Positions 7,349-62,465 of a stretch of 64,000 bases of DNA are shown in pieces. Position numbers and translations under genes: made by a program. The stretch's first letter is position 1. Each line of letters opens with the position of its first letter. The stretch lies in contig CAVVNI010000003.1 in assembly GCA_963749585.1 (NCBI GenBank), positions 550,695-614,694 of the forward strand. Reading direction: 5' to 3'. The stretch is from an uncultured Actinomycetota bacterium. GTDB taxonomy: Bacteria > Actinomycetota > Actinomycetes > Actinomycetales > Dermatophilaceae. A model generated the notes under the pieces. The model was given only the letters and a program-made list of their open reading frames with translations, ran no database searches and had not been told where the DNA came from.

Positions 7349-7731
7349 CCCCGACGACCCGGCGTCCCACCCGTCAGCAGACCGCGGTCGCGGCGCGCCT
7401 CGGCGAGATCGAGGACTTCACCTCGGCCCAGGACTTGCACGCCCGGATGCGCACCGCCGGTGAGAGCATCGGGCTGGCCACCGTCTACCGCACGCTCACC
7501 GCCCTGGCGGCAGCCGGGGAGGTCGACGTGTTGCGCACCGATGACGGCGAGGCGGCATATCGGATGTGCAGCACCGGTCACCACCACCATTTGGTATGCC
7601 GCGACTGCGGCCGCACCGTGGAGATCGAGGGCCCAACCGTGGAGCAGTGGACCGAGCGAGTCGCGGCCGAGCACGGCTTCCACGATGTCGCACATACCTT
7701 GGAGATCTTCGGCACCTGCTCCGAGCACTGA
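7345..7731 (+). CDS. zur: Fur-family zinc uptake regulator
   Basis: FTSAQDLH..M......IGLATVYRTL..L, HHHHLVCRDCGR..E, HTLEIFG.C. ATGA overlap with znuB makes it the last gene of the operon. Confidence 0.85.
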   Translation: MTPTTRRPTRQQTAVAARLGEIEDFTSAQDLHARMRTAGESIGLATVYRTLTALAAAGEVDVLRTDDGEAAYRMCSTGHHHHLVCRDCGRTVEIEGPTVEQWTERVAAEHGFHDVAHTLEIFGTCSEH

Positions 7732-42068: not shown

Positions 42069-42080
42069 GAGTGCTCCTTG

Positions 42081-42094
42081 CAATGGATCCATTG
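42081..42094. promoter_or_regulatory. Perfect 14-bp palindrome CAATGGATCCATTG in the divergent VOC/GntR - E1 control region (candidate operator)
   Basis: Read directly. It lies 13 nt upstream of the VOC start on the minus strand, within the 152-bp divergent intergenic region. GTATggATAC and TGTCGACA palindromes lie further on in the same region. Confidence 0.3.
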
Positions 42095-42220
42095 GGGTCC
42101 TACTCTAGTCATGGCAGCACCTTATGTCGACACATTGACCAGAGTGTACGGATGGTATGGATACATTCAGTGGCTCTGGATCTTCGCAGCACTCGGTCGA
42201 CCGAAAAGAGAGAGAGCGTC

Positions 42221-44401: not shown

Positions 44402-44402
44402 C

Positions 44403-46647: not shown

Positions 46648-46875
46648 CGGCAGCACCGGCCTGCTCTGGACACCCCGAGCGGATAGGCGCTCGCCCACCC
46701 GCTGGCAAACCAGGCCTCGATAGCCTCCATACACACGGGTAGTTCTGTCTGAGCACACATTTGCCACGAGATGCACCGGATTCCTTTACACCGTGTGCAC
46801 TGGGAGTGTACGTTTTCCCCGAGTATCCCAGAGGACACTGGCCTGCTGTGCAGGCGTCAACGCAAAGAGGCGTAC

Positions 46876-48408
46876 ATGACGAAGCAAGGCTCACCTGAGG
46901 CGCAGGGCACCGTCGTGATCGAGGCGACGTCCGTCGTCAAGCGTTTCGGCGGTGCGACAGCGGTTGATGACGTCAGCGTCCAAGTTCGCGCCGGGGAGAT
47001 CTACGGAATCGTCGGCGAGAACGGTGCCGGCAAGTCGACCCTCATGCGCATGCTGGCGGGGATACTGACCCCGACCGAGGGTGTTGTCACGGTGGACGGA
47101 CGTCCCCTCGAGGGTGGCGCCAAGGGGGCGATCGAGGCAGGAATCGCGTTGGTCCATCAGGAGCTGAGCCTGGTGCCAGAGATGACCAGCGCCGAAAACA
47201 TCATGCTCGGAGCCTTCCCGACGAGCTACGGATTCATTAAGTCCAAGGATCTGAGGAAGATCGCGAACGATGCGATCGAGGAGATCGGCGTGGGGGTCGA
47301 CCTCGACGAGCGAGTGGCCCGACTCTCCGTGGCGCTGCGCCAGTTCGTTGAGATCGCTCGCGCTGTCGCCCGCAAGCCCCGGGTGCTGATCCTCGATGAA
47401 CCCACCGCGACGTTGACTCCCGCTGAGACCGACTACCTGCTGGCGATGCTGCAGCGGCTCGCTGGGCGTGGGCTCGCCATTCTCTATATTTCGCACCGTC
47501 TCCCGGAAATCTTCACGATCTGCGATCGGGTCACGGTGCTGCGAGATGGGCGTCACATCAAGACGATGGACATCGGGGACACCACGCCAGACGACCTCGT
47601 CGACCAGATGGTCGGCGGCGAGCTCAAGGCAGATCTGCAGGTCCATCGAGACGTAGAACTAGGGGAGGTGGTCCTGGACGCGCGAGGTGTCCAGGCCCCA
47701 GGGGTGAACGACATCGATCTGCAGGTGCGGGCCGGTGAGATCGTTGGCCTCGGCGGGCTGGTCGGTGCCGGTCGCACCGAACTGGTGCGGGCGATTCTGG
47801 GTGTGGACCCTAGAACGGCAGGCGATGTCACGATCACGGTCGCAGGTGAGACGAAGAGAATCACCAGCTACCAAAGCGCCATAGACAGCGGTGCGGCATA
47901 CGTGCCAGAGGAGCGCAGGACCGACGGCCTGGCTCTGACCATGTCGGTCGTGGACAACATCACCCTGCCTAACCGAGGCAAGCTTTCCACCTACGGGGTA
48001 CTGATGCCGAAGCAGATCACCCCCTTCGCCCAAGAACTCTCAGAGTCTGTCGGCCTCAGACCGCCTAAAATCAAGAGCGCAGCGGGTGAATTCAGCGGGG
48101 GCAACCAGCAGAAGATCGTCATAGCGAAGTGGCTCGGTCGAGAGCCCGACCTGATCGTCCTTGATGAACCGACCAGGGGGGTGGATGTCGGCGCCAAGGC
48201 CGAGATTCACCGGCTCGTCCGTGAACTTGGTAGTCGTGGCACAGCGGTGTTGGTGGTGAGCTCCGACCTCGCAGAACTTCTCGACCTCTCTGATGTGGTC
48301 CACGTGATCAGGGACGGTCGGATCACGGGAACGCTGACCGCGGCGGAGGCAGACGAAAAGTCAGTCATGTTACTTGCGTCCGGAGGAACGTTGGTGGATA
48401 GCGCATGA
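46876..48408 (+). CDS. Sugar-type (CUT2) ABC transporter ATP-binding protein with duplicated NBD (RbsA/MglA-like)
   Basis: First NBD has GENGAGKSTLM..L.G and ILDEPTA.L. The second has a degenerate Walker A (GLGGLVGAGRTEL), FSGGNQQKIVIAKWL and LDEPTRGVDVGAK. 510 aa. Confidence 0.9.
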   Translation: MTKQGSPEAQGTVVIEATSVVKRFGGATAVDDVSVQVRAGEIYGIVGENGAGKSTLMRMLAGILTPTEGVVTVDGRPLEGGAKGAIEAGIALVHQELSLVPEMTSAENIMLGAFPTSYGFIKSKDLRKIANDAIEEIGVGVDLDERVARLSVALRQFVEIARAVARKPRVLILDEPTATLTPAETDYLLAMLQRLAGRGLAILYISHRLPEIFTICDRVTVLRDGRHIKTMDIGDTTPDDLVDQMVGGELKADLQVHRDVELGEVVLDARGVQAPGVNDIDLQVRAGEIVGLGGLVGAGRTELVRAILGVDPRTAGDVTITVAGETKRITSYQSAIDSGAAYVPEERRTDGLALTMSVVDNITLPNRGKLSTYGVLMPKQITPFAQELSESVGLRPPKIKSAAGEFSGGNQQKIVIAKWLGREPDLIVLDEPTRGVDVGAKAEIHRLVRELGSRGTAVLVVSSDLAELLDLSDVVHVIRDGRITGTLTAAEADEKSVMLLASGGTLVDSA

Positions 48409-49424
48409 GCAAAGTAGATACCGACCAAAGCGCCACTAAGACGCAGGCACCACCGGTTGAACGGGACCCTTCCGCACGAAATGCCGCGATTCTTGCCTGG
48501 GTCGCCGAGCGCGGCATCTTCTTCTTCACCATCGCTCTCATTCTGTTCGCAGTGTTCTTCGTCGACGGTTTTGCCTCGCTGGTCAACATCACCGACGTCT
48601 TTCACCGGGCTGCACCGATCGGTATCGTGGCGGTCGGCATGACCTTCGTGGTGATTTCGGGCAACTATCTGGACCTGTCCGTGGTGGCGCAAGTCGCTAC
48701 CTCCGCGGTGATCCTGATCGCGGTAAGCAACTCGTACGGGATTGTGGTCGCTGTCCCGGCCGCGCTTCTGGTCGCCTTGATCTATGGGGTTGTCAACGGC
48801 GCTGCGGTCGGATATTTCAAAGCCAACGCCGTCATCGTCACACTGTCGACGTCCTACATCGGTCTGGGACTCCTGCGCTGGCTGTCCGGCGGCAGCATCT
48901 TTTTCGGTCCATCAGATGGTGTCATCGCCACCATCGGGCAGGTCAAAGTCGGGCCCGTGCCGATCTCGGCCATCGTTCTGATCGCGATGGCCCTGCTGCT
49001 GGCCTTCGTGCTGGACCGGAGCAACTTCGGCTTCCTGATCCGTGCTTTCGGCTCGAACAACGAGGCGACTCGACTGAGTGGGGTGGCGACCCCGCGAGTG
49101 GTGCTCGGTGCCTTCTTGATAACTGCCCTTTCCGCCACGATCGCTGGGTTCGTGCTGGCTGCTTTCTCCAACACCGCCGTGTCGACGATGTCCGACGGTT
49201 TCGACTTCGGTGCGCTGGCGGCGATCATCATCGGCGGGACCAGCGTGTTCGGCGGCAAGGGAAGTGTGTTGAGGACACTGCTGGGGGTGGTGTTCGTCAG
49301 CGTGCTGACCAACGTCTTGGTCATATCAAACATCGGATTCGGCTGGCAACAGATGGCGATCGGGGCACTCATCGTCCTAGCGGTCGCTGTCGACTCCCTC
49401 GCCCGGAAGGGAACTAGGCGATGA
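48405..49424 (+). CDS. CUT2 ABC transporter permease (RbsC-like)
   Basis: About 10 TM helices; IDLSV......S.V........; GG.S..GG.G.V..T..G. ATGA overlap with the ATPase gene. Confidence 0.85.
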   Translation: MSKVDTDQSATKTQAPPVERDPSARNAAILAWVAERGIFFFTIALILFAVFFVDGFASLVNITDVFHRAAPIGIVAVGMTFVVISGNYLDLSVVAQVATSAVILIAVSNSYGIVVAVPAALLVALIYGVVNGAAVGYFKANAVIVTLSTSYIGLGLLRWLSGGSIFFGPSDGVIATIGQVKVGPVPISAIVLIAMALLLAFVLDRSNFGFLIRAFGSNNEATRLSGVATPRVVLGAFLITALSATIAGFVLAAFSNTAVSTMSDGFDFGALAAIIIGGTSVFGGKGSVLRTLLGVVFVSVLTNVLVISNIGFGWQQMAIGALIVLAVAVDSLARKGTRR

Positions 49425-50500
49425 CCAACCTCGACACTCTCGATCTGGCTCAAAGCGGCGCGGGCTCCAGCAAATGGCGTGCCTCCCTCGCCCGTCGAAC
49501 CGAGTGGCGGGCTGTCAGCCTTCTCGTGATCGTCGTGATCGTTGCCCTGGTGATGGAGCCATTGGTCTTCACCGCCTACGAAGTCACACTCGGGCGGGTG
49601 GCCTTGATCGGGTTGGTCGCACTCGGGTTGACGGCGGTCATCTTGATGGGCGAACTCGATCTGAGTGTGGCCAGCACGCTGGCCGTCTCCGGCGTGGTGA
49701 TGGCGAGCGTTCCGAACTTTACTCTTGGAATCCTCGCCGCGCTTGCCACCGGCCTCCTCATCGGCGTCGTGAACGCCTTCCTGGTAGTCAAAGTAGGCAT
49801 CAACTCCTTTATTGCGACCCTCGGCATGCTCTTCGTGTTGCGCGGTCTCGCGTTCGTGCTTTCCGACGAGAAGCCTGTTCGGCTGACCAACATCGAGGCG
49901 GGCATCGAGTTCGGGAGACCGCTGATTGGCCCGCTCACGCCACGCATCCTTCTGTTCGTCCTCGCTTTCGTAGCGCTGCAAGTCTTCGTCACCAGGGTGC
50001 GCGCGGGGCGTGAGTTTTTCGCGGTGGGCGGCAACCGTCAGGGTGCTCGCGACGCAGGTATCCCGGTGTCGCGACGCCTGTACACCGGCTTCATGATCTC
50101 GGGTTTCGTCGCTGCCCTGGCGGGTGTGATCAACACGATGGAACTGACTGCGGCAGACCCAACTGCAGGTTCCAGTGTCCTGTTGTCGAGTTTTGCTGCC
50201 GCGATCATCGGTGGTAGTGCCCTGACCGGCGGTCGGGGCTCGATCGTGGGAACTCTCATCGGGGCTCTATCGCTGGGAATCCTCGAGGTGGGGCTCACTT
50301 TGTCTGGTGTTCAGATCGACGTGCAGCAGATCTTCATCGGTGGTGTACTGCTCATCGCTGTTATCACCGATCCCGCGGGTCTACGAGCCGCCCGGGCAAA
50401 CCTCGTCGCGTCCCTCCAGAGCCGCCAAGCCAGCAGCCAGCCGGCTACACCGACTCACAACACGCCGCCAACTCACAACACGCCGCCACGGTCGCAATAG
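49421..50500 (+). CDS. Second CUT2 ABC transporter permease (RbsC-like), with a Thr/Pro-rich C-terminal tail
   Basis: GELDLSV.S..A........, IIGG.ALTGGRGSIVGTLIGAL. ATGA overlap. The tail reads ...ATPTHNTPPTHNTPPRSQ. Confidence 0.85.
   Translation: MTNLDTLDLAQSGAGSSKWRASLARRTEWRAVSLLVIVVIVALVMEPLVFTAYEVTLGRVALIGLVALGLTAVILMGELDLSVASTLAVSGVVMASVPNFTLGILAALATGLLIGVVNAFLVVKVGINSFIATLGMLFVLRGLAFVLSDEKPVRLTNIEAGIEFGRPLIGPLTPRILLFVLAFVALQVFVTRVRAGREFFAVGGNRQGARDAGIPVSRRLYTGFMISGFVAALAGVINTMELTAADPTAGSSVLLSSFAAAIIGGSALTGGRGSIVGTLIGALSLGILEVGLTLSGVQIDVQQIFIGGVLLIAVITDPAGLRAARANLVASLQSRQASSQPATPTHNTPPTHNTPPRSQ
50453..50488 (+). repeat. Perfect 18-bp tandem duplication (ACTCACAACACGCCGCCA x2) encoding THNTPP x2
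   Basis: Read directly at the 3' end of the second permease gene. Confidence 0.9.
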
Positions 50501-50533
50501 AAGTCACGGTCCCAGAGAAGAGGAAGACAAGCG

Positions 50534-51517
50534 ATGAGAACGCCCCGTTTCACCACCGGAGCCGTTGGCTTCCTGGCAGCAGTCAGCCTGATCTTGAGCG
50601 GCTGCGGCTCCTCCGACGACGACTCGGGTGGCGGCGAATTCTCGGTCTACGCGCTTCTGCCGCAGGGGACCGACCAGCCCTACGGAACGACGTACCTGCC
50701 ACCGATGAGAGAGGAGGCGGCGAAGAATGGAATCGACCTCACCATCACCAACGCTCAGTACGACGCAGACCAGCAGGCCAGCGACTGCACAGTGGCGGTT
50801 GCCTCTGAACCCGACCTCATCATCCTCTGGCCGGCCGTAGGCGACACTGCACTTCCATGTCTCGCCAAGGCCCAGTCGGCCGATATCCCGGTCACGATCA
50901 GCAACTCTGACGTGAATCCCGAAGACAAGGAGTACACCGCGGGATACTCCGGGCCGGACACCTATGGTCAGGGTGCCGCGTCGGCGGAGATGATGTGCGA
51001 GCTCGCAGATGGCGAGCCCACCAACATCATCATGGTGAACGGGCAAACCGGTAACTCCACGGCGATCAACCGCCGCGCGGGTTTCATGGAAACCATCGCG
51101 TCCGAGTGTCCCAACGTGACGATTCTGGCGGAGCAGCCCGGGAACTGGAATAAGGACGACTCCCAGACCGTCACATCCGAAATGCTCACATCCGTCGGGG
51201 CCGACAAGGTCGATGGGATCTTCGCCGCCGACGACACGATGATCGCTGGCGCTATTGCGGCTCTCAAGTCCCGCGGCATTGACCCTGAGCCGCTCCACAT
51301 CACCTCTATTGGCAACACGGAACTGGGCAACCCCCTGGTGAAGTCCGGCGAACTCGACGGGACCATCTTTCAGTCTTCTTCGTGGGATGGCCGCAATGCC
51401 ATTGTTATCGCGGACCAGGTCTTGAACGGTGAAACTGTGGAGGAGGACCTCTTCATGCCCTCGATCAAGGTCACCCAGGAGAACGCGGATGATCCCGAAG
51501 TCGCTCCTGAGTGGTGA
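50534..51517 (+). CDS. CUT2 ABC transporter substrate-binding lipoprotein (RbsB-like, periplasmic-binding-protein type I fold)
   Basis: Lipobox LILSGCGSS; alternating beta-alpha pattern with ...DLIILWP...., IPV...N......., G..A...M.......I....G..G......R..GF, GIFA.DD.M..GA..AL...G. Confidence 0.85.
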   Translation: MRTPRFTTGAVGFLAAVSLILSGCGSSDDDSGGGEFSVYALLPQGTDQPYGTTYLPPMREEAAKNGIDLTITNAQYDADQQASDCTVAVASEPDLIILWPAVGDTALPCLAKAQSADIPVTISNSDVNPEDKEYTAGYSGPDTYGQGAASAEMMCELADGEPTNIIMVNGQTGNSTAINRRAGFMETIASECPNVTILAEQPGNWNKDDSQTVTSEMLTSVGADKVDGIFAADDTMIAGAIAALKSRGIDPEPLHITSIGNTELGNPLVKSGELDGTIFQSSSWDGRNAIVIADQVLNGETVEEDLFMPSIKVTQENADDPEVAPEW

Positions 51518-51613
51518 CCGTGTTCACGCGATCCGAATCAACGGGGGTGCGGCACGGTGCCGTTCGTGCATCGGGCTGCGCCCCGTCCCGCCGATCCATA
51601 CTGGAGATCTGAC

Positions 51614-52900
51614 ATGGCCACGATCCTGGAAACCCCACCGCTGACGCCCGCGCTCGACTTTGGCGTGCGCAACATACCGGCTCCTGGCCACATGGGTGTC
51701 GACTACGAGGCGCGGGTCGATTTCGGCAGGCTACGTGACTACCGACTGGCTCGGGCCGTGGGGTCGTTGGAGGCCAGTGGGTGCGGGGCGTTCCTGCTCT
51801 TCGACTTCTACAACATCCGCTACTCCACGCAGACCTGGATTGGCGGCGCCCTGGGCGACAAGATGTCTCGCTACGCCCTCCTGACTCGCGACGCTCAGCC
51901 GCACCTGTGGGACTTCGGCTCAGCGGCGAAACACCACAGGCTCTATGCTCCGTGGCTGGAGCCGGATCGGTGTCGAGCCGGGATGCTCGGCTTACGTGGC
52001 GCGATCAGCCCCGAGGCGGGACTGATGAAGGATGCCGTCACCGACATCAAGGGCTTGCTGACTGATGCGGGAGTGGTGGATGAACCCGTCGGCGTGGACA
52101 TCGTCGAGCCTGCGTTCCTCTTCGAAATGCAGGCCCAGGGGCTGACGGTGGTCGATATCCAGCAACACATGTTGGACGCCCGCGCCATCAAGTCGGTCGA
52201 CGAGATCATGTTGTTGAGCCAGGCTGCGGCGATGGTCGACGGCGTGTACCAAGACATCGTTGAAGCACTGAAGCCGGGAGTGCGGGAGAACGACATCGTC
52301 GCGCTGGCCAATAAGCGGCTCTACGAGATGGGTTCGGACCAGGTCGAGGCGGTCAACGCCGTGTCAGGAGAGCGCTGCAACCCGCACCCACACAACTTCA
52401 CCGACCGCATTATCCGGCCGGGAGATCAGGCGTTCTTCGACATCATCCACTCCTTCAATGGCTACCGGACGTGCTACTACCGCACGTTCTCGGTGGGTTC
52501 ATCGACCCCACCGCAGCATGAGGCGTACACGCGCGCACGCGAGTGGATGGACGCGGCGATCGACAAGGTCGCCGACGGAGTAGGCACCGATGAAGTGGCT
52601 CAACTCTGGCCCAAGGCAACAGATCTCGGGTTCGCCAGCGAGATGGACGCATTCGGTCTGCAGTTCGGTCACGGGCTCGGTCTGGGTCTGCACGAGCGGC
52701 CGATCATCTCGCGTCTCAACAGCCTGACGAATCCGGTGGAGATCAAGAACGGCATGGTCTTCGCCCTCGAAACGTACTGCCCGGCATCCGACGGAGTCTC
52801 TGCGGCGCGGATCGAGGAGGAGGTCGTCGTGACCGAAAAGGGCGCCGAGGTTCTCACACGGTTCCCGGCCCAGACACTGTTTGTGGCAAACAAGTACTGA
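51614..52900 (+). CDS. M24-family (pita-bread fold) metallohydrolase with a creatinase-type N-domain; resembles creatinase, ectoine hydrolase and DddP-type enzymes more than a housekeeping aminopeptidase
   Basis: FLLFDFYNIRYST (compare DddP LLMFDPLNIRYAT as I recall it), AIKSVDEI.LL, PGDQAFFDI...FNGYR.CYYRTF, HGLGLGLHERP, NGMVFALET, ARIEEEVVVTE.G.E.LT.FP. The start is at MATILE (ATG 51614). Confidence 0.75.
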   Translation: MATILETPPLTPALDFGVRNIPAPGHMGVDYEARVDFGRLRDYRLARAVGSLEASGCGAFLLFDFYNIRYSTQTWIGGALGDKMSRYALLTRDAQPHLWDFGSAAKHHRLYAPWLEPDRCRAGMLGLRGAISPEAGLMKDAVTDIKGLLTDAGVVDEPVGVDIVEPAFLFEMQAQGLTVVDIQQHMLDARAIKSVDEIMLLSQAAAMVDGVYQDIVEALKPGVRENDIVALANKRLYEMGSDQVEAVNAVSGERCNPHPHNFTDRIIRPGDQAFFDIIHSFNGYRTCYYRTFSVGSSTPPQHEAYTRAREWMDAAIDKVADGVGTDEVAQLWPKATDLGFASEMDAFGLQFGHGLGLGLHERPIISRLNSLTNPVEIKNGMVFALETYCPASDGVSAARIEEEVVVTEKGAEVLTRFPAQTLFVANKY

Positions 52901-53794: not shown

Positions 53795-55240
53795 ATGATC
53801 ATCAGCGCGCTCGATGTTCGGTCCCAGCTGTTCATCGGCGGAGAGTGGATCACGTCCGCGACCCGTCTGCCTGTCCACAACCCCGCGACCGGTGACGTGC
53901 TGGCCGAGGTCGCAGACGCCACGGTCGACGAGGCGCTCCAGGCCGTCGGATCGGCGTACGACGCGGCTGGCGGTTGGGCCGCCTCCTCGCCTCGCGAGCG
54001 AGCAGAGGTCCTGCGCCGCTCCTTCGAGATCATGACCGAGGAAATCGAGGATTGCGCGCGCCTCATCGTGCTCGAAAACGGCAAAGCGTGGAGCGACGCG
54101 ATGGGCGAGGCACGCTATGCCGCCGAGTTCTTCCGGTGGTTCTCTGAGGAGGCCTGTCGGGTGCCCGGTGACTTCCGGATGGCTCCCGGAGGAGACAAGA
54201 CAATCATCGTGGACCACCGCCCGCTGGGTGTCGCCTACCTGATCACCCCCTGGAACTTCCCTGCGGCGATGGCCACCCGGAAGTTGGCTCCAGCCTTGGC
54301 GGCTGGTTGCACCACGGTGCTCAAACCCGCCGCCGAAACTCCTCTGACCGCGCTGTGGGTGGCCGACGTGATGCAGCGGGCGGGGGCGCCAGCGGGCGTT
54401 GTCAATGTGATCCCGACGTCGGCGTCTGGCCCCGTCTCCGAGGCGGTGTTGGCCGACTCGCGCGTGGCTACGCTGTCGTTCACCGGTTCGACCTACGTCG
54501 GGAAGTTGCTGCTGTCGCAAACGGCGCAGCGAGTCCTGCCATCATCGATGGAGCTTGGCGGTAATGCCCCACTGATCGTCCTGGAGGGGGCTCTGGTCGA
54601 GCGCGCCGTCGAGGGGGCGTTGGTGGCCAAGATGCGTAACGGTGGGTGCGCCTGCACGGCGGCGAATCGGTTCTACGTCCACGAGTCACTGGCAGAGTCC
54701 TTCACGGCGCAGTTCCAGTCAGCGCTCGCCGCACTGCGAGTCGGCCCTGGGATCGAGAGGCACCATGAGCTTGGAGCGATGGTGAGCACCAAGGAGCGCG
54801 ACAAGATCCTCGATCTGGTGAGCCAAGCCGAGGCCGAAGGCGGGCGGAGCGTCACGGTGTCAGAAGCACCCAGCAGGGGCGCCTTCCTGGCTCCGCGCAT
54901 CGTGCACGACGTCGAGCAAGGCTCGGTGCTGACCCGCAACGAAATCTTCGGTCCGGTCGCGCCGATCGTGACGTTCAACTCCACGCAGGAGGCGATCTCG
55001 ATGGCCAACGACACAACGTATGGCCTGATTTCCTACGTGTTCGCGCAGAACGACGCTGAGGGCCTGCGAGTCGGCGCCCGGATGGAGTCGGGAATGGTCG
55101 CGGTCAACCGCGGTATCGCCTCCGATCCAGCCGCGCCGTTTGGCGGTTTCAAGGAGTCCGGTCTGGGCCGCGAGGGGGGTTTTGCCGGCATCCACGAGTT
55201 CCTGGAGACCCAGTACCTCGCCGTCGACCTGCGACCCTAG
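53795..55240 (+). CDS. NAD(P)-dependent aldehyde dehydrogenase (succinate-semialdehyde dehydrogenase-like)
   Basis: LFIGGEW......L.V.NPATG..LA.V.DA, ITPWNFP.AM..RK.APALAAGCT.VLKPA..TPLT, FTGST.VG, MELGGNAP, cysteine block GG.ACTAANR, EIFGPV. The start is uncertain (ATG 53795 or GTG 53786; the track ORF starts at 53714). Confidence 0.9.
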   Translation: MIISALDVRSQLFIGGEWITSATRLPVHNPATGDVLAEVADATVDEALQAVGSAYDAAGGWAASSPRERAEVLRRSFEIMTEEIEDCARLIVLENGKAWSDAMGEARYAAEFFRWFSEEACRVPGDFRMAPGGDKTIIVDHRPLGVAYLITPWNFPAAMATRKLAPALAAGCTTVLKPAAETPLTALWVADVMQRAGAPAGVVNVIPTSASGPVSEAVLADSRVATLSFTGSTYVGKLLLSQTAQRVLPSSMELGGNAPLIVLEGALVERAVEGALVAKMRNGGCACTAANRFYVHESLAESFTAQFQSALAALRVGPGIERHHELGAMVSTKERDKILDLVSQAEAEGGRSVTVSEAPSRGAFLAPRIVHDVEQGSVLTRNEIFGPVAPIVTFNSTQEAISMANDTTYGLISYVFAQNDAEGLRVGARMESGMVAVNRGIASDPAAPFGGFKESGLGREGGFAGIHEFLETQYLAVDLRP

Positions 55241-55316
55241 TTTCAACCGACGTGCCCTTTCTGACGAAGGTCCCTGGGGTGGTCGTCGCGTTGGTGCTTG
55301 ATGCGACCCTGATCTA

Positions 55317-56567
55317 ATGTCGGCTCACCAGATCAGCGATGCCGACCGTCGCCGGCTCCTTGGCGCCCGCCATCTGCTGACCGCGAGCGCTCGCACTGAT
55401 GACGTCGAGGCGATCTCGCGGTCGGTCGTGGCGCTGCACTCCACGGATCCGGTCAGCGTGTACCTCAGCGTTCTTGCCCGGATGCGCAACCCAGACCTGA
55501 ACTCCGTCGCGGAGGCGCTCTACACCCGTCGTTCGCTGATTCGGCACCACGCAATGCGGCGCACATTGTGGGTCGCCACAGCGGACACCGTGGCGCTGAT
55601 GCACCATGCCTGCACGCTCAAGATCGCTGACGTGGAACGTCGCAAGACCGAAGCCTTCTTGGCCACCTCGGGTATCTCCGAGCCGGGGCGGTGGTTGATC
55701 CACGCCAAGGATCGGGTATGCGACGTGCTGGCCGAGCGCGGCCCGACGAGCGCCCGCGACATTGGCAAGCTGTTGCCGGAGGTCGCTCGCCCTCTGACCA
55801 TGGCAGAGGGGAAGACCTATGCCGGCACTCAGGGAGCGCATTCACGAGTGCTGACCGGGCTCGGGTTCGAGGGGCGAGGCGTGCGCACTCGGCCCAGTGG
55901 CAGCTGGATCAACGGACAGTATGCGTGGGCGCGCATGCAGGAGTGGGCACCCGACCTGCATACCTCGCTGCTGGCCGACGCCGGCCACAACGACGTGAGC
56001 CAGATGCCAGCGCAGGCGGAGTTGGCGAGGCTGTGGTTGAGCCGGTTCGGTCCGGGCACGGAGCGCGACCTCTCGTGGTGGGCCGGCTGGACACTCGGGG
56101 ACACGCGGGCGGCTTTGGCAGCATGCGGCGCCGAAGCCGTGGAAGTACAGACCGGATCGGCTTGGGTGTTGCCGGAGGACATCGAGGTGCTGGGTGCGGG
56201 GAAGCGTGGCGTGAACGGTGAGTTCGCCGACGAGCCGTGGGTGGCCCTGCTGCCAGGTCTGGACCCGAGCGTGATGGGCTGGAAGGAACGGGGCTTCTAC
56301 CTGCCATCTGGTGGGGAGCGGGCGTGGGACACCTATGGCAACGCAGGGCCGACAGTGTGGGTCGACGGAGCGGTGGTTGGCGCGTGGGGGCAGGCCAACA
56401 GCGGCGAGATCCGGCTACGCTACTTCACCGACCTGCCGCTCGCCCGCCGACGTGAGATCGAGGATCGGGCCGCGCAGGTCGGCGAATGGCTCGGTGCGAC
56501 CCGGATCTCCTGGCGCTTTCCGGGCGCTATCAATGCCGAGTTGATCGCACGGCCGGGATCGAGCTGA
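55317..56567 (+). CDS. Winged-helix DUF1006 / HTH_42 superfamily protein (AlkZ/YcaQ-like DNA glycosylase family)
   Basis: 416 aa. N-terminal RRRLLGARHLLT......V.A..R.VVALHSTDP.SVYLS..AR, SL....AMR.TLW..., C-terminal WRFPG... Overall length and pattern are typical of this family. Confidence 0.75.
   Translation: MSAHQISDADRRRLLGARHLLTASARTDDVEAISRSVVALHSTDPVSVYLSVLARMRNPDLNSVAEALYTRRSLIRHHAMRRTLWVATADTVALMHHACTLKIADVERRKTEAFLATSGISEPGRWLIHAKDRVCDVLAERGPTSARDIGKLLPEVARPLTMAEGKTYAGTQGAHSRVLTGLGFEGRGVRTRPSGSWINGQYAWARMQEWAPDLHTSLLADAGHNDVSQMPAQAELARLWLSRFGPGTERDLSWWAGWTLGDTRAALAACGAEAVEVQTGSAWVLPEDIEVLGAGKRGVNGEFADEPWVALLPGLDPSVMGWKERGFYLPSGGERAWDTYGNAGPTVWVDGAVVGAWGQANSGEIRLRYFTDLPLARRREIEDRAAQVGEWLGATRISWRFPGAINAELIARPGSS
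55335..55412 (+). repeat. Right copy of the 78-bp imperfect direct repeat
   Basis: 72 of 78 positions identical to 40697-40774. It lies inside codons 7-32 of the intact alkZ/ycaQ-like gene. Confidence 0.85.
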
Positions 56568-56784
56568 TTGGACCGCCAACACTGAGCTGAATGTGCCGCC
56601 CATGGCATGCTGGCCTGCAGTCGGTCAGCACCGAGCCAAGGCACCGTCGATGTCACGTCGACTGCACCGGCCCTGAGCTCGCCAGATGAGCCGGCTACCC
56701 CGCGGCCGGGAACGAGGGCGCCACACGTAGCGTTGACTTCTTCGCACGGCAATTGCGGTGCCATGGAGAAAAGGGACTGTCCGT

Positions 56785-59520
56785 ATGTTGCCTGGTGCCG
56801 TCCGCGCCCTCGCCGCCATGGCGGGACTGCTGACCCTGGCAGCGCCGGTTGCGATCGCCGCGCCGGTGCTGTCAGCCGAGCCGGTGAACGCGGCCGAGGT
56901 GGCTGCGAGCGTGGAGAACCGGCAGGTCGATGTCGGAGCCGAGCCTGATGGCACGCAGGTGGCGCTGGATGTCGACATCTATCGAGACGACGCGGCCGAC
57001 GAGTCGGTCCCGGCGGTCATCTTGGGGCACGGGTTCGGCGGGAGCAAGGCTGACCTCGTGGACCAGGCTGAACGCCTAGCCGGCGAAGGGTATCTGGTGG
57101 TGGCCTACTCGGCGCGGGGGTTCGGCGCGTCCGGTGGGCGGGTGCATGTGAACGACCCAGACTTCGAGATCGCCGACGCGCAGGCACTGATCGACGTTCT
57201 GGCCGACGACCCGGGCGTGCAGCAGGACGGTGCGGGTGACCCGCGGGTCGCGCTCGTGGGTGGCAGCTACGGCGGGGCCATGGCACTGATGACAGCCGGC
57301 GCGGACGAGCGCGTCGATTCGGTGATCGCTCAGATCACCTGGAATGACCTGGCGGACGCGTTCTATCCGCAGTCGGCGGTCGGGGTCGACCAACCGGGAC
57401 CGTTCAAGAAGCTGTGGGCCTCCACCTTCTTCGCGTCGGTGGTGGCTGCTCCGTTGAACGGGCAAGCTGGCGAGGACCCCCAAGGAGCCGGCCAGGGAGC
57501 GGGCGGAGCTGCTGATGCCCAGAGCGGCGCCCTCATCGATCCACTGTGCGGGGCCTTCGACCCGGAGCTGTGTCAGCAGTTCATTGGGGCGATGGAGTCG
57601 GCCGAGGCCAACGAAGAGCTGATCGAGCAGCTTCGTCGGCACAGCCCGGCGCCCACGCTCGCAGATGTGACCGCGCCGACGTACCTGGTGCAGGGCATGT
57701 CGGACAGCCTGTTCGGGCTGGACCAAGCCGATGCCAATGCGCGGGTGCTGTTGGATGCCGGAGTGCCGACGGCGGTGAACTGGTTCAACGGGGGACACGG
57801 CGCCCAGACGTCGGTGCAGCCCCCGAGCAACGATGAGGAAGGCGGCCCGCCCGGGGACGATGGTGCCACTGTTGCCGGGGAGGGGATCGACCTCGAGCAG
57901 GAGCAAACCGACAATGCTCTGACGTGGCTCGATGGCACATTGCGGGCCTCCGAGCCGGTCACTCAGGAGACGCTGCCACTACCTGCCTTCAGCTATGTCG
58001 GGCCGCTGCCGAGCAACGGCCAGGCGCCCGAGGAGTACACCCTGGACGTCTACCCGGGTCTGAACGATGTTGGCTGGATGTCAGCCGATGGCGAGCAGGA
58101 AGCAGCAGGTGAGCGGACGTACCTCCCGCTCAGCGCGCAAGGGCCCCCTGCGCTTGCCAGTCCTCCGGGGGCCGTGCCCGAAGCCTTGACCACCATCCCG
58201 GGTGTCGGTGGCCTGCTGGGTGAGGTCTCCACATACGCGCTGGCTGCGCTGCCGGGCCAGTCCGTGGCCTTCGACACCGAGCCGCTCGACGAGGCACTCG
58301 TGGTGGCAGGGCAACCGCAGGTCAGTCTCGACGTCACGTCGACCGGACCGGCCAGCAGCTTGTTCGTTTCGCTGTGGGAGGTGCAGCCCGGTGGCCCGGT
58401 GTTGCCGCGGCGTCTCGTCGCCCCACTGGAGGTGGACGTCACGCCGGGGCAGTCGCAACGCGTGGAGATTGCTCTGCCGGCCGGCACCTGGGACATGCCT
58501 GCGGGCTCAACCTGGCGTGTGTTGGTCAGTGCGACCGACGGATCGTTCCGCGTCGACCCGACCACCCGACTGGACCAGGTCTCGCTCGCTGACCCCGCGC
58601 TGGGTTTGGCATTGCCGGTGAGTCAAGCCACCGCGGTCAGCCCGCCGAGCCGCTGGGACAACGAGACGATCGGCGTGGCGATCGCCTTGGGGACAGTGCT
58701 GTTGCTGTCGGCCATAGCCCTGATCCGGGCACGCACCCGGCCGCATCCGCAGGTTGCTCAATGGGCCGATGTGCCACTGGTCGTCAGCGGGTTGACCAAG
58801 GCCTACGCCGACGGTCACCTTGCCGTCGACGACGTGTCCTGGCGTGCGGAGAAGGGCCAAGTGGTCGGCTTGCTGGGCCCCAACGGCGCCGGCAAAACGA
58901 CCACCCTGCGGATGGTGATGGGCCTGATCGGACAAGACTCGGGAACGGTGCACGTCCTGGGTAGGCCGGTGTATGCCGGAGCGCCCGTGCTGCAGCGCGT
59001 CGGGTCTCTGGTCGAAGGGCCGGGTTTCTTGCCGCACCTGTCGGGGATGGATAACTTGCGGGCGTACTGGGCGGCGACAGGCAGACCCGCCCACGAGGCC
59101 CAGTTTGAGGAGGCCTTGGCGATTGCGGCCCTGGGCGACGCGGTACAACGACCGGTGAAGTCGTACAGCCAAGGGATGCGTCAACGTCTCGGCATAGCCC
59201 AGGCCATGCTCGGGATGCCCGAAGTGCTGATCCTGGACGAGCCGACCAATGGCCTCGACCCACCGCAGATCGCGGCGATGCGACCCATGTTGGCCGACTA
59301 TGCAGCTGCCGGGCGCACTGTCGTCATCTCAAGTCACCTGCTGGCCGAGGTCGAGATGACGTGTAGCCACGTTGTGGTGATGCACGCCGGAAGGGTGTTG
59401 GCGGCCGGCTCGGTGGCGGAGGTCGGCGTGGAGCAAGGACGCAACTTGGAAGAGGTCTTCTTGTCCACCATCGCCGGAGCGGCGCAGGGCGCGGCGTTGA
59501 ACGCGGTGCGGCCCCGATGA
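56785..59520 (+). CDS. Fusion protein: signal peptide + CocE/NonD (peptidase S15-like) alpha/beta hydrolase with C-terminal beta-sandwich domain + single TM helix + ABC transporter ATP-binding domain
   Basis: One uninterrupted ORF. Signal MLPGAVRALAAMAGLLTLAAPVAIA-AP. Hydrolase motifs ILGHGFGGSK, AYSARGFGASGG, nucleophile elbow VGGSYGG (Ser codon 57265-57267), VQGMSDSLF, NGGHG. Non-catalytic domain LVVAGQPQVSLDV.S......FVSLW.V.P.G. TM IGVAIALGTVLLLSAIALI (about 58668-58727). NBD has Walker A GPNGAGKTT, signature YSQGMRQRL, Walker B LILDEPTNGLD and H-loop SSHLL. The start is ATG 56785 (AAAGGGA upstream) or the track start 56758. Confidence 0.8.
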   Translation: MLPGAVRALAAMAGLLTLAAPVAIAAPVLSAEPVNAAEVAASVENRQVDVGAEPDGTQVALDVDIYRDDAADESVPAVILGHGFGGSKADLVDQAERLAGEGYLVVAYSARGFGASGGRVHVNDPDFEIADAQALIDVLADDPGVQQDGAGDPRVALVGGSYGGAMALMTAGADERVDSVIAQITWNDLADAFYPQSAVGVDQPGPFKKLWASTFFASVVAAPLNGQAGEDPQGAGQGAGGAADAQSGALIDPLCGAFDPELCQQFIGAMESAEANEELIEQLRRHSPAPTLADVTAPTYLVQGMSDSLFGLDQADANARVLLDAGVPTAVNWFNGGHGAQTSVQPPSNDEEGGPPGDDGATVAGEGIDLEQEQTDNALTWLDGTLRASEPVTQETLPLPAFSYVGPLPSNGQAPEEYTLDVYPGLNDVGWMSADGEQEAAGERTYLPLSAQGPPALASPPGAVPEALTTIPGVGGLLGEVSTYALAALPGQSVAFDTEPLDEALVVAGQPQVSLDVTSTGPASSLFVSLWEVQPGGPVLPRRLVAPLEVDVTPGQSQRVEIALPAGTWDMPAGSTWRVLVSATDGSFRVDPTTRLDQVSLADPALGLALPVSQATAVSPPSRWDNETIGVAIALGTVLLLSAIALIRARTRPHPQVAQWADVPLVVSGLTKAYADGHLAVDDVSWRAEKGQVVGLLGPNGAGKTTTLRMVMGLIGQDSGTVHVLGRPVYAGAPVLQRVGSLVEGPGFLPHLSGMDNLRAYWAATGRPAHEAQFEEALAIAALGDAVQRPVKSYSQGMRQRLGIAQAMLGMPEVLILDEPTNGLDPPQIAAMRPMLADYAAAGRTVVISSHLLAEVEMTCSHVVVMHAGRVLAAGSVAEVGVEQGRNLEEVFLSTIAGAAQGAALNAVRPR

Positions 59521-60326
59521 GCGCGGTGTTGACTCCTCGGGTCGAGGCCCGCAGGCAGCTGACCCGGCTGCGCACCCGGTGGACCTTCGCCGTGCTGTTC
59601 GTGTTGCCGTTGATCGTGGTCGGCGCCTACGCGCTCGGCGATGATGACGGTGGCGGTGCACGGTTTTCGGATCTGACCACAAGCGGCTCGGCCAACTTCG
59701 CCATCTTCATGGTGTTCGTCACCGCCGAGCTGTTGCTGCTCATCGTGGCAGCCCTGTTTGTCGGTGACCCGATTCCCTCGGAAGCCTCCTGGTCCTCGCT
59801 GCGCTATCTACTGACTGCGCCGGTGCCGCGGATGAAGCTGTTGACCAGCAAGCTCATCGTCGGTCTGGGTGGGACAGCGCTGGCGATGGTCACGCTCTTG
59901 GTGTGGGTGCTGCTGGTCGGCGGAGTGTTCTACGGCTGGTCGTCGTTGACCTTGCCGGTGGGCGGGGCCCTGGACTGGCCCACGTTCCTGGTCCGGTTGG
60001 CTGTCGCTGCGGCATACATCTTCGTCGCGCTGCTGCCCTTTGCCGCCATCGCGTTCTGGATGGGCGTGCGCACAGACGCCCCGCTCGGTGCCGTGGGGGT
60101 CGCAGTGCTGGCCGCGATCGTCTCGTCGATCCTCGATGCGCTGGACGCCCTCGGCGACTATCGGCGCGCGCTGCCGAACCACTACTCCAGGGAATGGGTG
60201 GGACTGCTCCAGGCAGAGGCTGACTACTGGGCGTTGCTGCCCGGAGTGCTGTGGGCTTCGCTGTGGGCCAGCGTGTTCATCGCGCTCGCCTACCGGCACT
60301 TCGCACGCAAAGATGTCCTGAGCTAG
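59517..60326 (+). CDS. ABC-2-type transporter permease
   Basis: 269 aa, about 6 TM helices, a large first extracytoplasmic loop region, typical ABC-2 layout. ATGA overlap with the fusion gene. Confidence 0.75.
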   Translation: MSAVLTPRVEARRQLTRLRTRWTFAVLFVLPLIVVGAYALGDDDGGGARFSDLTTSGSANFAIFMVFVTAELLLLIVAALFVGDPIPSEASWSSLRYLLTAPVPRMKLLTSKLIVGLGGTALAMVTLLVWVLLVGGVFYGWSSLTLPVGGALDWPTFLVRLAVAAAYIFVALLPFAAIAFWMGVRTDAPLGAVGVAVLAAIVSSILDALDALGDYRRALPNHYSREWVGLLQAEADYWALLPGVLWASLWASVFIALAYRHFARKDVLS

Positions 60327-60357
60327 AAGACCACGCCCTGTGGGCCTACGTGGCGCT

Positions 60358-60906
60358 CTAGCCGTCCAGTCCTTGTGGTGCCTCCGGTTGCCGGGCCCGG
60401 TCGACGCCGCGTGCGCGACTGTTCCTGATCCGCTTGCTGACCAGCGTCGCCGCGTACACCACCGCGATCGCACCGAGGCCCGCCAAAGCCAAGGGCGAGC
60501 CGGCGGCGGCGGCCACCGCTGCCTGCCAGACCGCGAAGCCGATCGTGGCATAGATCAACGCCCAGGCAGCTGCGCCGGGGACCTGCGCCGCCGTGAACCA
60601 CGACCACCGCAACCGCATCACTCCGGCGGCGGCGAGCACCAGCGTCTGAAAGCCGACGGTGAGATAGCTCAGCGGCACCACGATCAGTCCCCACCGCTGA
60701 ATCGAACGGCGTCCACGGGCCAGCCCTTCGCCTTGCAACCAGGTATGAACGCTGCGGCGCCACCCCTGCTGCGGATGAGTGCGTGCGAGTGTCCCTTCGA
60801 CGACGACGCGCGCGACCCAGTAAGTCAGCTGTCCGCGGAGCAGGGCGACCAGAAAAAGGAGCCCGAAAGTGAGCCAGAAGCCTTGGCCCAACCACCCTTC
60901 CGGCAT
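60358..60906 (-). CDS. DedA/VTT-domain family membrane protein
   Basis: FLVALLRGQLTYWVAR........, RWG...V.LSYLTVG.QT.V..AAG..R..W..F. The start is taken at MPEGW (ATG 60906). Confidence 0.7.
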   Translation of the reverse strand: MPEGWLGQGFWLTFGLLFLVALLRGQLTYWVARVVVEGTLARTHPQQGWRRSVHTWLQGEGLARGRRSIQRWGLIVVPLSYLTVGFQTLVLAAAGVMRLRWSWFTAAQVPGAAAWALIYATIGFAVWQAAVAAAAGSPLALAGLGAIAVVYAATLVSKRIRNSRARGVDRARQPEAPQGLDG

Positions 60907-61088
60907 GGCGACATCATCGCACGCGGCGAGGTTCACACAGCGGTCACGCCGGGGCAGCAACCCGGTCAGGGCCTGCCCGGTGGCCTAGGCTGATGGCGTC
61001 CCTGCGCATGTGTTCCGCAGCGGGACGCTAGTTCCCTTCATCAGGCACGATGGGTGATGACCACCCGGGGCGAGATAGAGGACAACCG

Positions 61089-62465
61089 ATGACTGAAACG
61101 ATGCCGACCACACTCATCATCCTGGGCGCCTCGGGAGACTTGACCAGCCGGCTTCTCCTGCCGGGACTGGCATCGTTGCTGAGCGTGGAGCCCGAGCGGA
61201 GTATCGAGGTGATCGGCGTCGATCGGGGGAAGCTGAGCGACCAGGAATGGCATACGGTCCTCGTTGACGCGATGGCCGAGTCCGAGCTGCCGCAGTCCCG
61301 CCTGGACGAGTTGCTCGCGACCACCTCCTACGTGCAGACCGACGTCCTCGATCCGCAGATGCTCGCAGACCTGCTCAGCGGCCGGTCCGCGCCGATGGTG
61401 CTGTACTTCGCGTTGCCGCCGCAGGTGAGCAGCAAGGCATGCGCGTTGTTGGAGAACATCGACCTGCCGCCGGGCACCCAGCTGGCGTTGGAGAAGCCTT
61501 TCGGGCATGACCTCGAGTCAGCGCAGGAGCTCAATGCACAGCTGCTCAGGCTGGTGCCAGAGGAGCAGATACACCGAATCGACCACTTCCTGGGCGTCAA
61601 CACGGTGCTGAACCTCATCGGCATCCGGTTCGCCAACCGGTTGTTGCAGCCCGTGTGGTCTGCCGAGCACATTGAGCGCGTGGATATCACCTACGACGAG
61701 AAGCTGGCCCTCGAGGGCCGGGCCGGCTACTACGACCACGCCGGCGCGTTGGTCGATATGGTCCAGTCACACCTGCTGCAGATCTTGGCGCTCTTTGCGA
61801 TGGAGGCGCCCGCGTCGTTGACCAGTGGCGAGGTCCAGGCGCTCAAGTCTCAGGTGCTGCGGGCGACGCATCTGTTGGACGACGATCCGGTGACTGCTTC
61901 TCGGCGGGCACGCTACGGGGCCGGTCGGATCGATGGGCGCGAGGTGCCCGACTACGTCGCCGAGCAGGGGGTGGACGCTCAGCGTTCTACCGAGACCTTG
62001 GCCGAGGTGATCCTGGTGGTTGAGAACGCTCGGTGGTCGGGAGTGCCTTTTCACCTGCGCAGCGGTAAGGCGCTAGGGCACCAGGCCAAGCGGATCACCG
62101 TCACGTTCAAGGCGCCGACTCATCTGCCGACAGGGTTGCGAGACACTCCCGAGCCCGATGAGCTGGTGCTCGATCTGAAACCTGGCGCCGTGTCCATGGT
62201 GCTGTCGATGAACGCCGAGGGCGACCCGTTCGAGCTGGAGCAGAAGTCGTTGACGGCGACGTTGGGCAAGCCGCGGATGCTGCCCCACGGGGAAGTTCTC
62301 GCCGGGATCCTCGAGGGCGACCCGCTGTTGTCGATCCGTGGTGATGTGGCCGAGCAATGCTGGCGGATCATGACGCCGGTGTTGCAGGCATGGCAGGACG
62401 GCTCGGTGCCGCTGGAGACCTACCCGGCCGGCAGTAGCGGACCCGAACATGGGTCAGCCGACTGA
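61089..62465 (+). CDS. zwf: Glucose-6-phosphate dehydrogenase (divergent paralogue)
   Basis: LIILGASGDLTSRLLLPGL, YFALPP, LALEKPFGHDLESAQELN, HRIDHFLGVNTVLNL...RFAN (canonical RIDHYLGKE is altered), Y...GA..DM.QSHLLQ.L, WSGVPF.LRSGKAL. Confidence 0.85.
   Translation: MTETMPTTLIILGASGDLTSRLLLPGLASLLSVEPERSIEVIGVDRGKLSDQEWHTVLVDAMAESELPQSRLDELLATTSYVQTDVLDPQMLADLLSGRSAPMVLYFALPPQVSSKACALLENIDLPPGTQLALEKPFGHDLESAQELNAQLLRLVPEEQIHRIDHFLGVNTVLNLIGIRFANRLLQPVWSAEHIERVDITYDEKLALEGRAGYYDHAGALVDMVQSHLLQILALFAMEAPASLTSGEVQALKSQVLRATHLLDDDPVTASRRARYGAGRIDGREVPDYVAEQGVDAQRSTETLAEVILVVENARWSGVPFHLRSGKALGHQAKRITVTFKAPTHLPTGLRDTPEPDELVLDLKPGAVSMVLSMNAEGDPFELEQKSLTATLGKPRMLPHGEVLAGILEGDPLLSIRGDVAEQCWRIMTPVLQAWQDGSVPLETYPAGSSGPEHGSAD

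Follow-up and report, generated by a model that had tools for sequence, protein, structure and literature searches.

The analyzed window, a stretch of 64,000 nucleotides from an uncultured actinobacterium of the Dermatophilaceae (contig CAVVNI010000003.1 of assembly GCA_963749585.1, positions 550,695 to 614,694), contains two overlapping genes that join a predicted extracytoplasmic serine hydrolase to an ATP-binding cassette (ABC) transport system. The first gene encodes a single polypeptide in which a hydrolase of the CocE/NonD type is linked through one transmembrane (TM) helix to an ABC nucleotide-binding domain (NBD), and the second encodes an ABC-2 permease. Together the two genes are shown here to constitute a self-contained ABC machine of the type V/ABC-2 class that is widely conserved in actinobacteria, and the fusion itself is confirmed to be real, ancient, and widespread in this group.

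The fusion gene (positions 56785–59520 of the window; forward strand, as for all features of the pair) begins with the ATG at 56785, runs for 911 codons to a TGA, and, as an original prediction made from this stretch had stated, has no internal stop. In the list of open reading frames (ORFs) the frame is open over 56758–59520, and a GTG at 56758 is an alternative start. The order of parts proposed in that prediction is borne out by a Pfam domain search and an AlphaFold2 (AF2) model, which agree on it. An N-terminal signal-peptide-like segment, recognized from hydropathy and with a hydrophobic core at residues 8–29 (residues 1–30, 56785–56874), leads into an S15-type alpha/beta-hydrolase core with a helical lid (residues 40–340, 56902–57804; Pfam, Foldseek, and conservation) and a PepX_C-type beta-sandwich (residues ~390–620, 57952–58644; Pfam PepX_C, a profile alignment to 8yzn, and AF2). 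These are followed by the single TM helix, which ends in RAR (residues 626–650, 58660–58734; hydropathy and AF2), an Arg-rich and predicted cytoplasmic linker of ~16 residues that, by orthologue spacing, joins this helix to the first NBD strand (residues 651–664, TRPHPQVAQWADVP, 58735–58776), and the NBD (residues 665–911, 58777–59517; Pfam ABC_tran, motifs, and PDB matches).

The permease ORF (59517–60326; 269 residues with six TM helices, from Pfam, AF2, and Foldseek) begins at the ATG within an ATGA overlap with the end of the fusion gene, as had been noted from the sequence, and is translationally coupled to the fusion gene through this overlap. A RefSeq pair from Tsukamurella tyrosinosolvens, annotated as 'alpha/beta fold hydrolase' and 'ABC transporter permease', likewise overlaps by 4 nt. 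The final NBD residues, L..VR.R (59490–59520 in the window), overlap the permease start and are invariant in 28 closer homologues, which may reflect translational coupling or a functional tail; in distant orthologues this region of the NBD tail does not align. An Rfam scan of positions 55000–61200 returned no match, and a promoter and terminator scan returned no signal above chance.

All Pfam calls on the two proteins were above the gathering cut-offs, and those for the hydrolase half were Peptidase_S15 at residues 55–310 (67.2 bits against a cut-off of 23) and PepX_C at residues 489–586 (43.5 bits against 22.5). The three hydrolase motifs that had been read from the translation are all present and supply a Ser-Asp-His triad in the order of the CocE/NonD family, with a GxSxG elbow: the nucleophile Ser161 in GGSYGG (57265–57267), Asp307 in QGMSDSLF (57703–57705), and His338 in NGGHG (57796–57798). 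The Ser-to-Asp spacing is 146 residues and the Asp-to-His spacing 31, and the corresponding spacings in CocE are ~142 and ~28. The protein additionally carries an HGFGG oxyanion motif (His82), an RGxxxSxG motif spanning R111–G118, and a cysteine pair in CGxFDPxxC (Cys255, 57547–57549; Cys263, 57571–57573). When the N-terminal 620 residues were compared with the PDB using Foldseek, the best match was the lipase PaL (8yzn/8yzo; E 3e-28, template modeling score [TM-score] on the target 0.75), followed by cocaine esterase, alpha-amino-acid ester hydrolase, SACOL2612, and PepX. The fold aligned over ~610–690 columns to 8yzn and CocE with TM-scores on the target of 0.63–0.75, and a profile alignment of the beta-sandwich with the C-terminal domain of 8yzn gave an E-value of 4e-7 for that domain. 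On every sequence and fold criterion applied, the fusion ectodomain is a predicted member of the CocE/NonD (MEROPS S15) hydrolases. Directly behind the catalytic His338, the fusion protein and its closest relatives contain a low-complexity acidic/Gly/Pro insert (residues 341–367, 57805–57885) with a predicted local distance difference test (pLDDT) value below 50.

The NBD is complete, in agreement with the initial reading. ABC_tran matches at residues 682–822 (101 bits), and the Walker A motif GPNGAGKT (Lys704), the signature YSQGMRQR (Ser795), the Walker B motif VLILDE with the catalytic glutamate (Glu819), and the H-loop SSH (His851) are all in place, as in an ABC ATPase. The Q-loop position is occupied by Glu744, and by Glu in 78 of the 78 fused orthologues described below, a substitution that is usual in this ABC-2 subgroup. 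The nearest PDB sequences are the NBDs of ABCA4, ABCA3, and ABCA1 (E ~1e-52), then 1vpl and NosF (E 1.5e-38), while Foldseek with the C-terminal part of the protein retrieved 1vpl, LptB, NosF (36% identity), and Rv1218c. The permease matched ABC2_membrane_2 and ABC2_membrane_4, as did 14 of 14 permeases scanned, and its AF2 model (pLDDT 86.5) has six long helices. Its outer loops are conserved at G57/N60/F61, G135/Y139/G140, and L212/R216/P220/W227. A PDB sequence search with the permease, as a single sequence or as a profile, gave no match, and the fold search alone succeeded: the best fold was NosY of the NosDFY complex (TM-score 0.62–0.65, 9 of 9 top matches), followed by ABCG25, ABCG2, Rv1217c, PmtCD, TarG, KpsM, and Wzm. 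Because NosY is the best permease fold and type V permeases come next, the ABC part is a type V/ABC-2 machine, with NosFY as its nearest solved relative. Most of the type V transporters among these matches handle lipids, lipid-linked polymers, or amphipathic peptides.

More specific identities for the ABC part were tried and rejected. The NBD scored 173 bits against the lantibiotic-protection ATPase model TIGR03740 (NCBIfam equivalog cut-off 309.75) and 160 bits against the DrrA daunorubicin-resistance model TIGR01188 (cut-off 312). As an anti-phage defense system, the pair drew from PADLOC generic matches to the ATPase region alone (mad3, mad8, and AriA) and none for the permease. The fusion protein and its closest relatives are without a ~60-residue C-terminal extension of the NBD that most homologues carry.

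The breadth of the family is apparent from two surveys. When ~5.8 billion proteins were searched with the fusion protein, at least 120 protein clusters matched at 50–83% identity, nearly all with the whole architecture and a few as partial fragments, from Ornithinimicrobium, Janibacter, Knoellia, Intrasporangium, Nocardioides, Arsenicicoccus, Lapillicoccus, and Nostocoides; among the matches listed, the nearest were from Ornithinimicrobium (81–83% identity). For the second survey, one genome per species was scanned with an alignment of the hydrolase plus the TM helix, a query chosen to avoid ATPase bias, and at least 555 genome loci were found to encode a relative of this portion. The locus counts given here refer to the best 80 of these at least 555 loci, which extend down to 34% identity, derive from isolates and metagenome-assembled genomes (MAGs), and were searched for the hydrolase and the NBD with custom hidden Markov models. 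They span Dermatophilaceae, Nocardioides, Micromonosporaceae, Kitasatospora and Streptomyces, Rhodococcus, Blastococcus, and others, and among them are loci from Terrabacter, Phycicoccus, Branchiibius, Quadrisphaera, Actinoplanes, Micromonospora, Asanoa, Pseudonocardiaceae, Propionibacteriaceae, and Motilibacteraceae.

The hydrolase and the NBD lie in one stop-free frame in 78 of these 80 loci, and the orthologue check that the original prediction had proposed found no stop codon separating the TM helix from the NBD. Of the two exceptions, L065 is cut off by a contig edge, and L010 (5890–8633) has the two halves in overlapping frames, with the shift at approximately nt 7545–7673 in the TM/linker region, and is the sole such locus among the 80. 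L010 belongs to a MAG whose 'MFD' name matches the Microflora Danica survey, which used nanopore reads, and the split may stem from an indel error or mark a true pseudogene. Residue conservation was counted across the 78 fused orthologues. Ser161 is retained in 77 of them, Asp307, His338, Cys255, and Cys263 in all 78, and the HGFGG motif in 75–76. On the ATPase side, where motif residues are invariant in 75–78 of the 78, the Walker A Lys is present in 78/78, the catalytic Glu in 77/77, and the H-loop His in 75/75. As both active sites are conserved, both enzymes are maintained under selection.

The predicted topology places the hydrolase outside and the ATPase inside the cell. The hydropathy profile of the fusion protein (Kyte-Doolittle, 19-residue) has two peaks only, at residues 4–31 (2.07) and at residues 626–651 (2.65, followed by RARTRPH). 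A basic-then-hydrophobic N-terminus occurs in every aligned homologue whose N-terminus is intact, and candidate cleavage sites are predicted at AIA-AP and LSA-EP. All 78 fused orthologues have a strongly hydrophobic helix ahead of the NBD (median maximum 2.67), with a median of 5 Lys or Arg in the 15 residues after it and 1 in the 15 before it, a positive-inside pattern that fits a cytoplasmic NBD. The invariance of Cys255 and Cys263 would fit an extracytoplasmic disulfide. Combined with the anchored or secreted state of unfused relatives, these features support the topology that had been judged coherent at the outset.

The full-length AF2 model (mean pLDDT 79.9) separates the alpha/beta core and helical lid (residues 40–340), the strands of the sandwich (402–618), the helix (626–650), and the NBD (665–900). 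Values fall to ~66 in the 641–660 blocks, and residues 651–653 are below 50. The sequences of the spacers that flank the TM helix vary among orthologues, but their lengths are nearly constant: 15–24 residues (interquartile range 16–18) from the last conserved Pro of the sandwich to the start of the TM helix, and 14–24 residues (interquartile range 16–16) from its end to the conserved Pro664 at the first NBD strand. By comparison, a loop in the hydrolase lid ranges from 9 to 66 residues. Given near-constant spacers beside so variable a loop, we read the TM helix and both domains as geometrically integrated in the complex and not loosely tethered.

The limits of the module were defined by all-against-all clustering of the ORFs in the 80 loci. 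Only two genes are conserved, the fusion (80/80) and a permease homologue directly downstream (75/80), and the remaining loci are cut short by contig ends. Neither a regulator or kinase nor a biosynthetic gene or third transporter subunit is conserved beside the pair in these loci. Of the roles suggested in the original prediction, cleavage of an exported product and destruction of a toxic ester or peptide as it is pumped out are possible, whereas signaling across the membrane finds no support, with no kinase or regulator conserved. The lack of a conserved biosynthetic cluster nearby argues against the processing of a cluster-specific product and for a housekeeping role in the envelope, a role also made plausible by the broad conservation of the pair in antibiotic producers and opportunists. 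In three loci (L011, L034, and L041), very long stop-free frames upstream of the hydrolase contain no Pfam domain and are just open high-GC frames.

The hydrolase also occurs without the NBD. A search with the hydrolase part alone returned 266 clusters at E < 1e-30, and the representatives inspected include soluble, secreted proteins (P0204, P0211, and P0247), TM-anchored proteins (P0140, P0158, and P0194), and proteins that end in a sortase signal (LPATG or LAETG) with a hydrophobic stretch and RRRR behind it (P0219, P0224, P0229, P0230, and P0263). Since free members are anchored to the wall or the membrane, the family is predicted to be extracytoplasmic and located at the cell surface, with several anchoring solutions. 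The hydrophobic-plus-Arg tail of the anchored relatives matches in layout the segment ahead of the NBD in the fusion, which suggests how the fusion may have arisen. No split version, with an unfused hydrolase adjoining an NBD and a permease, was found among the unfused relatives examined. One of the anchored relatives, P0158 (L081:86–5837), lies between a gene for a Polysacc_synt (Wzx-like) flippase and a gene for a 464-residue multi-spanning membrane protein, which by eye is O-antigen-ligase/polymerase-like with no Pfam match on record; this single case hints at a link to wall-polysaccharide loci. Another, P0140, adjoins an S8 subtilase.

These observations can be combined into a working model, to which we assign a probability of roughly 0.4, in which the ABC-2 module lifts a substrate associated with the membrane up to the tethered hydrolase, which cleaves it at the surface. 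Taking the usual (NBD)2(permease)2 stoichiometry as a guide, the complex would be (fusion)2(permease)2, with two NBDs in the cytoplasm, 12 permease helices and 2 anchor helices in the membrane, and two CocE/NonD-type serine hydrolases, predicted to be catalytically competent, held near the outside of the membrane. A paired ectodomain would be natural, as CocE is a biologically active dimer (title of 3puh). Driven by ATP, the ABC-2 module would extract or expel an ester- or amide-containing, membrane-associated substrate from the bilayer and present it directly to the tethered hydrolase, and the covalent link would give each motor one enzyme and set the geometry in which the substrate is handed over. 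The candidate substrates are speculative and follow from what type V transporters and CocE/NonD enzymes handle: a lipid, a lipid-linked envelope precursor, a wall-polymer ester, or an amphipathic peptide. Extraction and cleavage are suggested by the resemblance of the NBD to ABCA transporters, by the type V fold, by a lipase/esterase-like ectodomain near the membrane, and by the fixed spacers.

Several points weigh against this hand-off of a substrate. The gene neighborhood across the 80 loci is uninformative. Identity to the lipase is remote (19% in Foldseek), too low to tell ester from peptide specificity. The AF2 model is of a monomer and cannot show a contact between permease and hydrolase or a channel, and both the stoichiometry and the removal of the signal segment are inferred. 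Further, NosFY is considered to power NosD, its partner in the periplasm, and not to move a solute, and because NosFY is the best structural relative of both ABC parts, the comparison favors a different mechanism.

In that mechanism, a close rival of the hand-off model although in itself somewhat unlikely, no substrate is moved. ATP binding and hydrolysis would shift the anchor helices and the permease, and the hydrolases would be switched on or off, or their lids opened, in the way that FtsEX acts on cell-wall hydrolases and NosFY on NosD, such that a potentially dangerous surface hydrolase is licensed only when ATP is available; for this second element, too, we would put the chances well short of even. 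NosY as the best PDB fold for the permease and NosF among the best matches for the NBD fit such gating, and NosD has been described as membrane-anchored via NosFY (PMC8457098). Spacers of fixed length beside the TM helix are what the transmission of force would lead one to expect, the lid region combines an invariant Cys pair with variable inserts, and no gene related to a substrate is conserved nearby in the 80 loci. Yet one TM helix and ~16 apparently unstructured residues, modeled by AF2 with lower confidence, would make a weak lever, Pfam detects neither an FtsX-type extracytoplasmic domain nor a coiled-coil adaptor, and unfused members of the family exist without any ABC partner.

An improbable further explanation is that the fusion serves anchoring and co-localization only. 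An ancestral surface hydrolase, anchored in the membrane at its C-terminus and encoded upstream of an ABC-2 operon, would have been fused to the NBD through loss of its stop codon, and the fusion kept for stoichiometry and location, for example to hold the exporter for a toxic peptide or ester beside an enzyme that degrades it; retention on these grounds, with neither conformational coupling nor hand-off, seems to us equally doubtful. In its favor, the tails of the unfused relatives, a TM anchor or an LPXTG signal with RRRR, share the layout before the NBD, and the nearest NCBIfam models to the NBD are the lantibiotic-protection and daunorubicin-resistance ATPases, albeit with scores below their cut-offs. 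However, a fusion that stays intact in 78 of 80 loci down to ~34% identity with near-constant spacers points to more constraint than a simple tether would call for, and the unfused TM-anchored relatives examined do not lie beside ABC genes, so that the ancestral neighbors in this scenario are not observed. Finally, an artefact or pseudogene, in which an indel removed the stop between two separate genes, recalls the divided frames of L010 but is refuted by the identical architecture in at least 120 independent protein clusters, by fused loci in MAGs as well as isolates from many families, by a fully assembled RefSeq record, and by catalytic residues invariant on both sides of the junction, and can be considered vanishingly improbable.

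A transmembrane 'motor-enzyme', in which cytoplasmic ATP turnover acts via the single anchor helix and the NosY-like permease to gate a covalently attached extracellular serine hydrolase or to feed it with substrate extracted from the membrane, is a tentative proposal that we think more apt to fail than to hold. Should it be correct, extracellular catalysis on the actinobacterial envelope would be directly dependent on ATP, with the turnover of an ester-linked lipid or a wall-polymer substituent as a speculative example. Extracytoplasmic enzymes have no ATP of their own, and the few routes that carry power or control from inside to outside (FtsEX, NosDFY, and extractors of the Lol/Lpt type) are central to envelope biology. 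Conservation of the pair extends to at least several hundred actinobacterial species, among them Rhodococcus, Tsukamurella, Kitasatospora, Micromonospora, and Actinoplanes, and hundreds of these fusions are already in public databases under generic names. Each of the current names, 'alpha/beta fold hydrolase', 'CocE/NonD family hydrolase', 'ABC transporter ATP-binding protein', and 'ABC-2 type transport system ATP-binding protein', hides half of the fusion protein.

The genes around the operon in the window encode an AlkZ-like glycosylase, a VTT/DedA protein, G6PD, and a Na+/H+ exchanger (antiporter). The AlkZ-like DNA glycosylase gene (55317–56567; Pfam, 164 bits) lies directly upstream of the fusion gene and is not conserved beside the module elsewhere. 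At greater distance, a 776-residue ORF (42071–44401) combines E1_dh, Transket_pyr, and Transketolase_C as a fused alpha/beta E1 of a 2-oxoacid or acetoin dehydrogenase, and the ORF at 44217–45776 resembles, by eye, a lipoyl-bearing E2 acyltransferase. The region at 46771–52900 contains what by eye is a sugar-type ABC importer cluster (a double ATPase, two permeases, and a binding lipoprotein), unrelated to the fusion, then a protein of the M24 metallopeptidase family (Pfam), and, again by eye, ORFs that resemble a short-chain dehydrogenase and an aldehyde dehydrogenase.

The original prediction knew of no characterized ABC system with this fusion architecture, and a literature search found none, nor any paper on the hydrolase-TM-NBD fusion family. 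Its statement that NBDs are normally soluble or fused to their own permease was too strong. In TagGH, the wall-teichoic-acid exporter of Bacillus subtilis, the NBD subunit carries a fused TM helix, and this helix leads into an extracellular SH3b-like domain (PMC11466899). Like the pair described here, TagGH is a type V transporter in which the NBD polypeptide reaches an extracellular domain through one TM helix. The order in TagGH is reversed, with the outer domain at the C-terminus, and therefore no signal peptide is needed. Further, the outer domain of TagGH is a non-catalytic SH3b-like binding module on a flexible linker of ~30 residues, in contrast to a catalytic portion of ~600 residues with short fixed spacers.

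Two other fusions join a peptidase-type enzyme to an ABC system. Members of TCDB 3.A.1.145, such as Q1D520 of Myxococcus xanthus, are ABC-2 permeases fused to an M1 aminopeptidase, with an uncharacterized function (PMC3924187). They share with the present fusion the covalent joining of an ABC-2-class system to a peptidase-type hydrolase, but it is the permease and not the NBD that is fused, the enzyme is a zinc M1 aminopeptidase and not a serine hydrolase of the S15 type, and the phylum is a different one. As a permease-M1 peptidase fusion, 3.A.1.145 was ruled out as the identity of the hydrolase-NBD fusion. In the peptidase-containing ABC transporters (PCATs) such as SunT, a C39 peptidase is fused to an ABC exporter, and cleavage and export are coupled (PMC11466899). 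The PCAT peptidase is cytoplasmic and sits on a type IV half-transporter with its own TM domain and NBD, whereas here the hydrolase is predicted to lie outside and the NBD stands alone. Pfam detected neither a C39 peptidase nor an ABC_membrane domain, and this identity was rejected.

The hydrolase half shares with the CocE/NonD enzymes (cocaine esterase, alpha-amino-acid ester hydrolase, PepX, and PaL) the core, lid, and sandwich, the triad order, and the RGxxxSxG motif. It differs in its predicted export, in its continuation into a TM helix and an ABC ATPase, and in having at most 19% identity to any solved member; the solved members are, to our knowledge, free enzymes without a membrane anchor. 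In FtsEX, which acts with PcsB, RipC, CwlO, or EnvC, a cytoplasmic ABC ATPase controls an extracytoplasmic hydrolase. The likeness to FtsEX is one of concept only, as FtsX is a type VII permease with a large outer domain, the hydrolase is a separate protein, and Pfam indicates no sequence relationship. FtsEX was rejected as an identity, with no match to FtsX (four TM helices and a large outer domain) and a permease that falls in the ABC-2 families.

NosDFY is comparable in its six-helix ABC-2 permease and in an ABC module with a membrane-anchored extracytoplasmic partner (PMC8457098). NosD, however, is a separate, non-covalently bound protein and not a hydrolase, while here a serine hydrolase is fused to the NBD via its own TM helix. 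A role in copper-site assembly, the identity that NosDFY would imply, was rejected, with no nosD, nosL, or nosZ by the operon and no third gene conserved in the 80 loci. TagGH, 3.A.1.145, and the PCATs are partial precedents, and none combines an N-terminal exported catalytic domain, one TM helix, and a stand-alone NBD. The design is thus unusual but not unprecedented, and its novelty lies in the architecture and not in a demonstrated mechanism. To the known routes for powering or controlling enzymes outside the cell, the family would add a covalent, minimal two-gene version in which stoichiometry and geometry are fixed by the fusion, making it attractive for cryo-EM and reconstitution.

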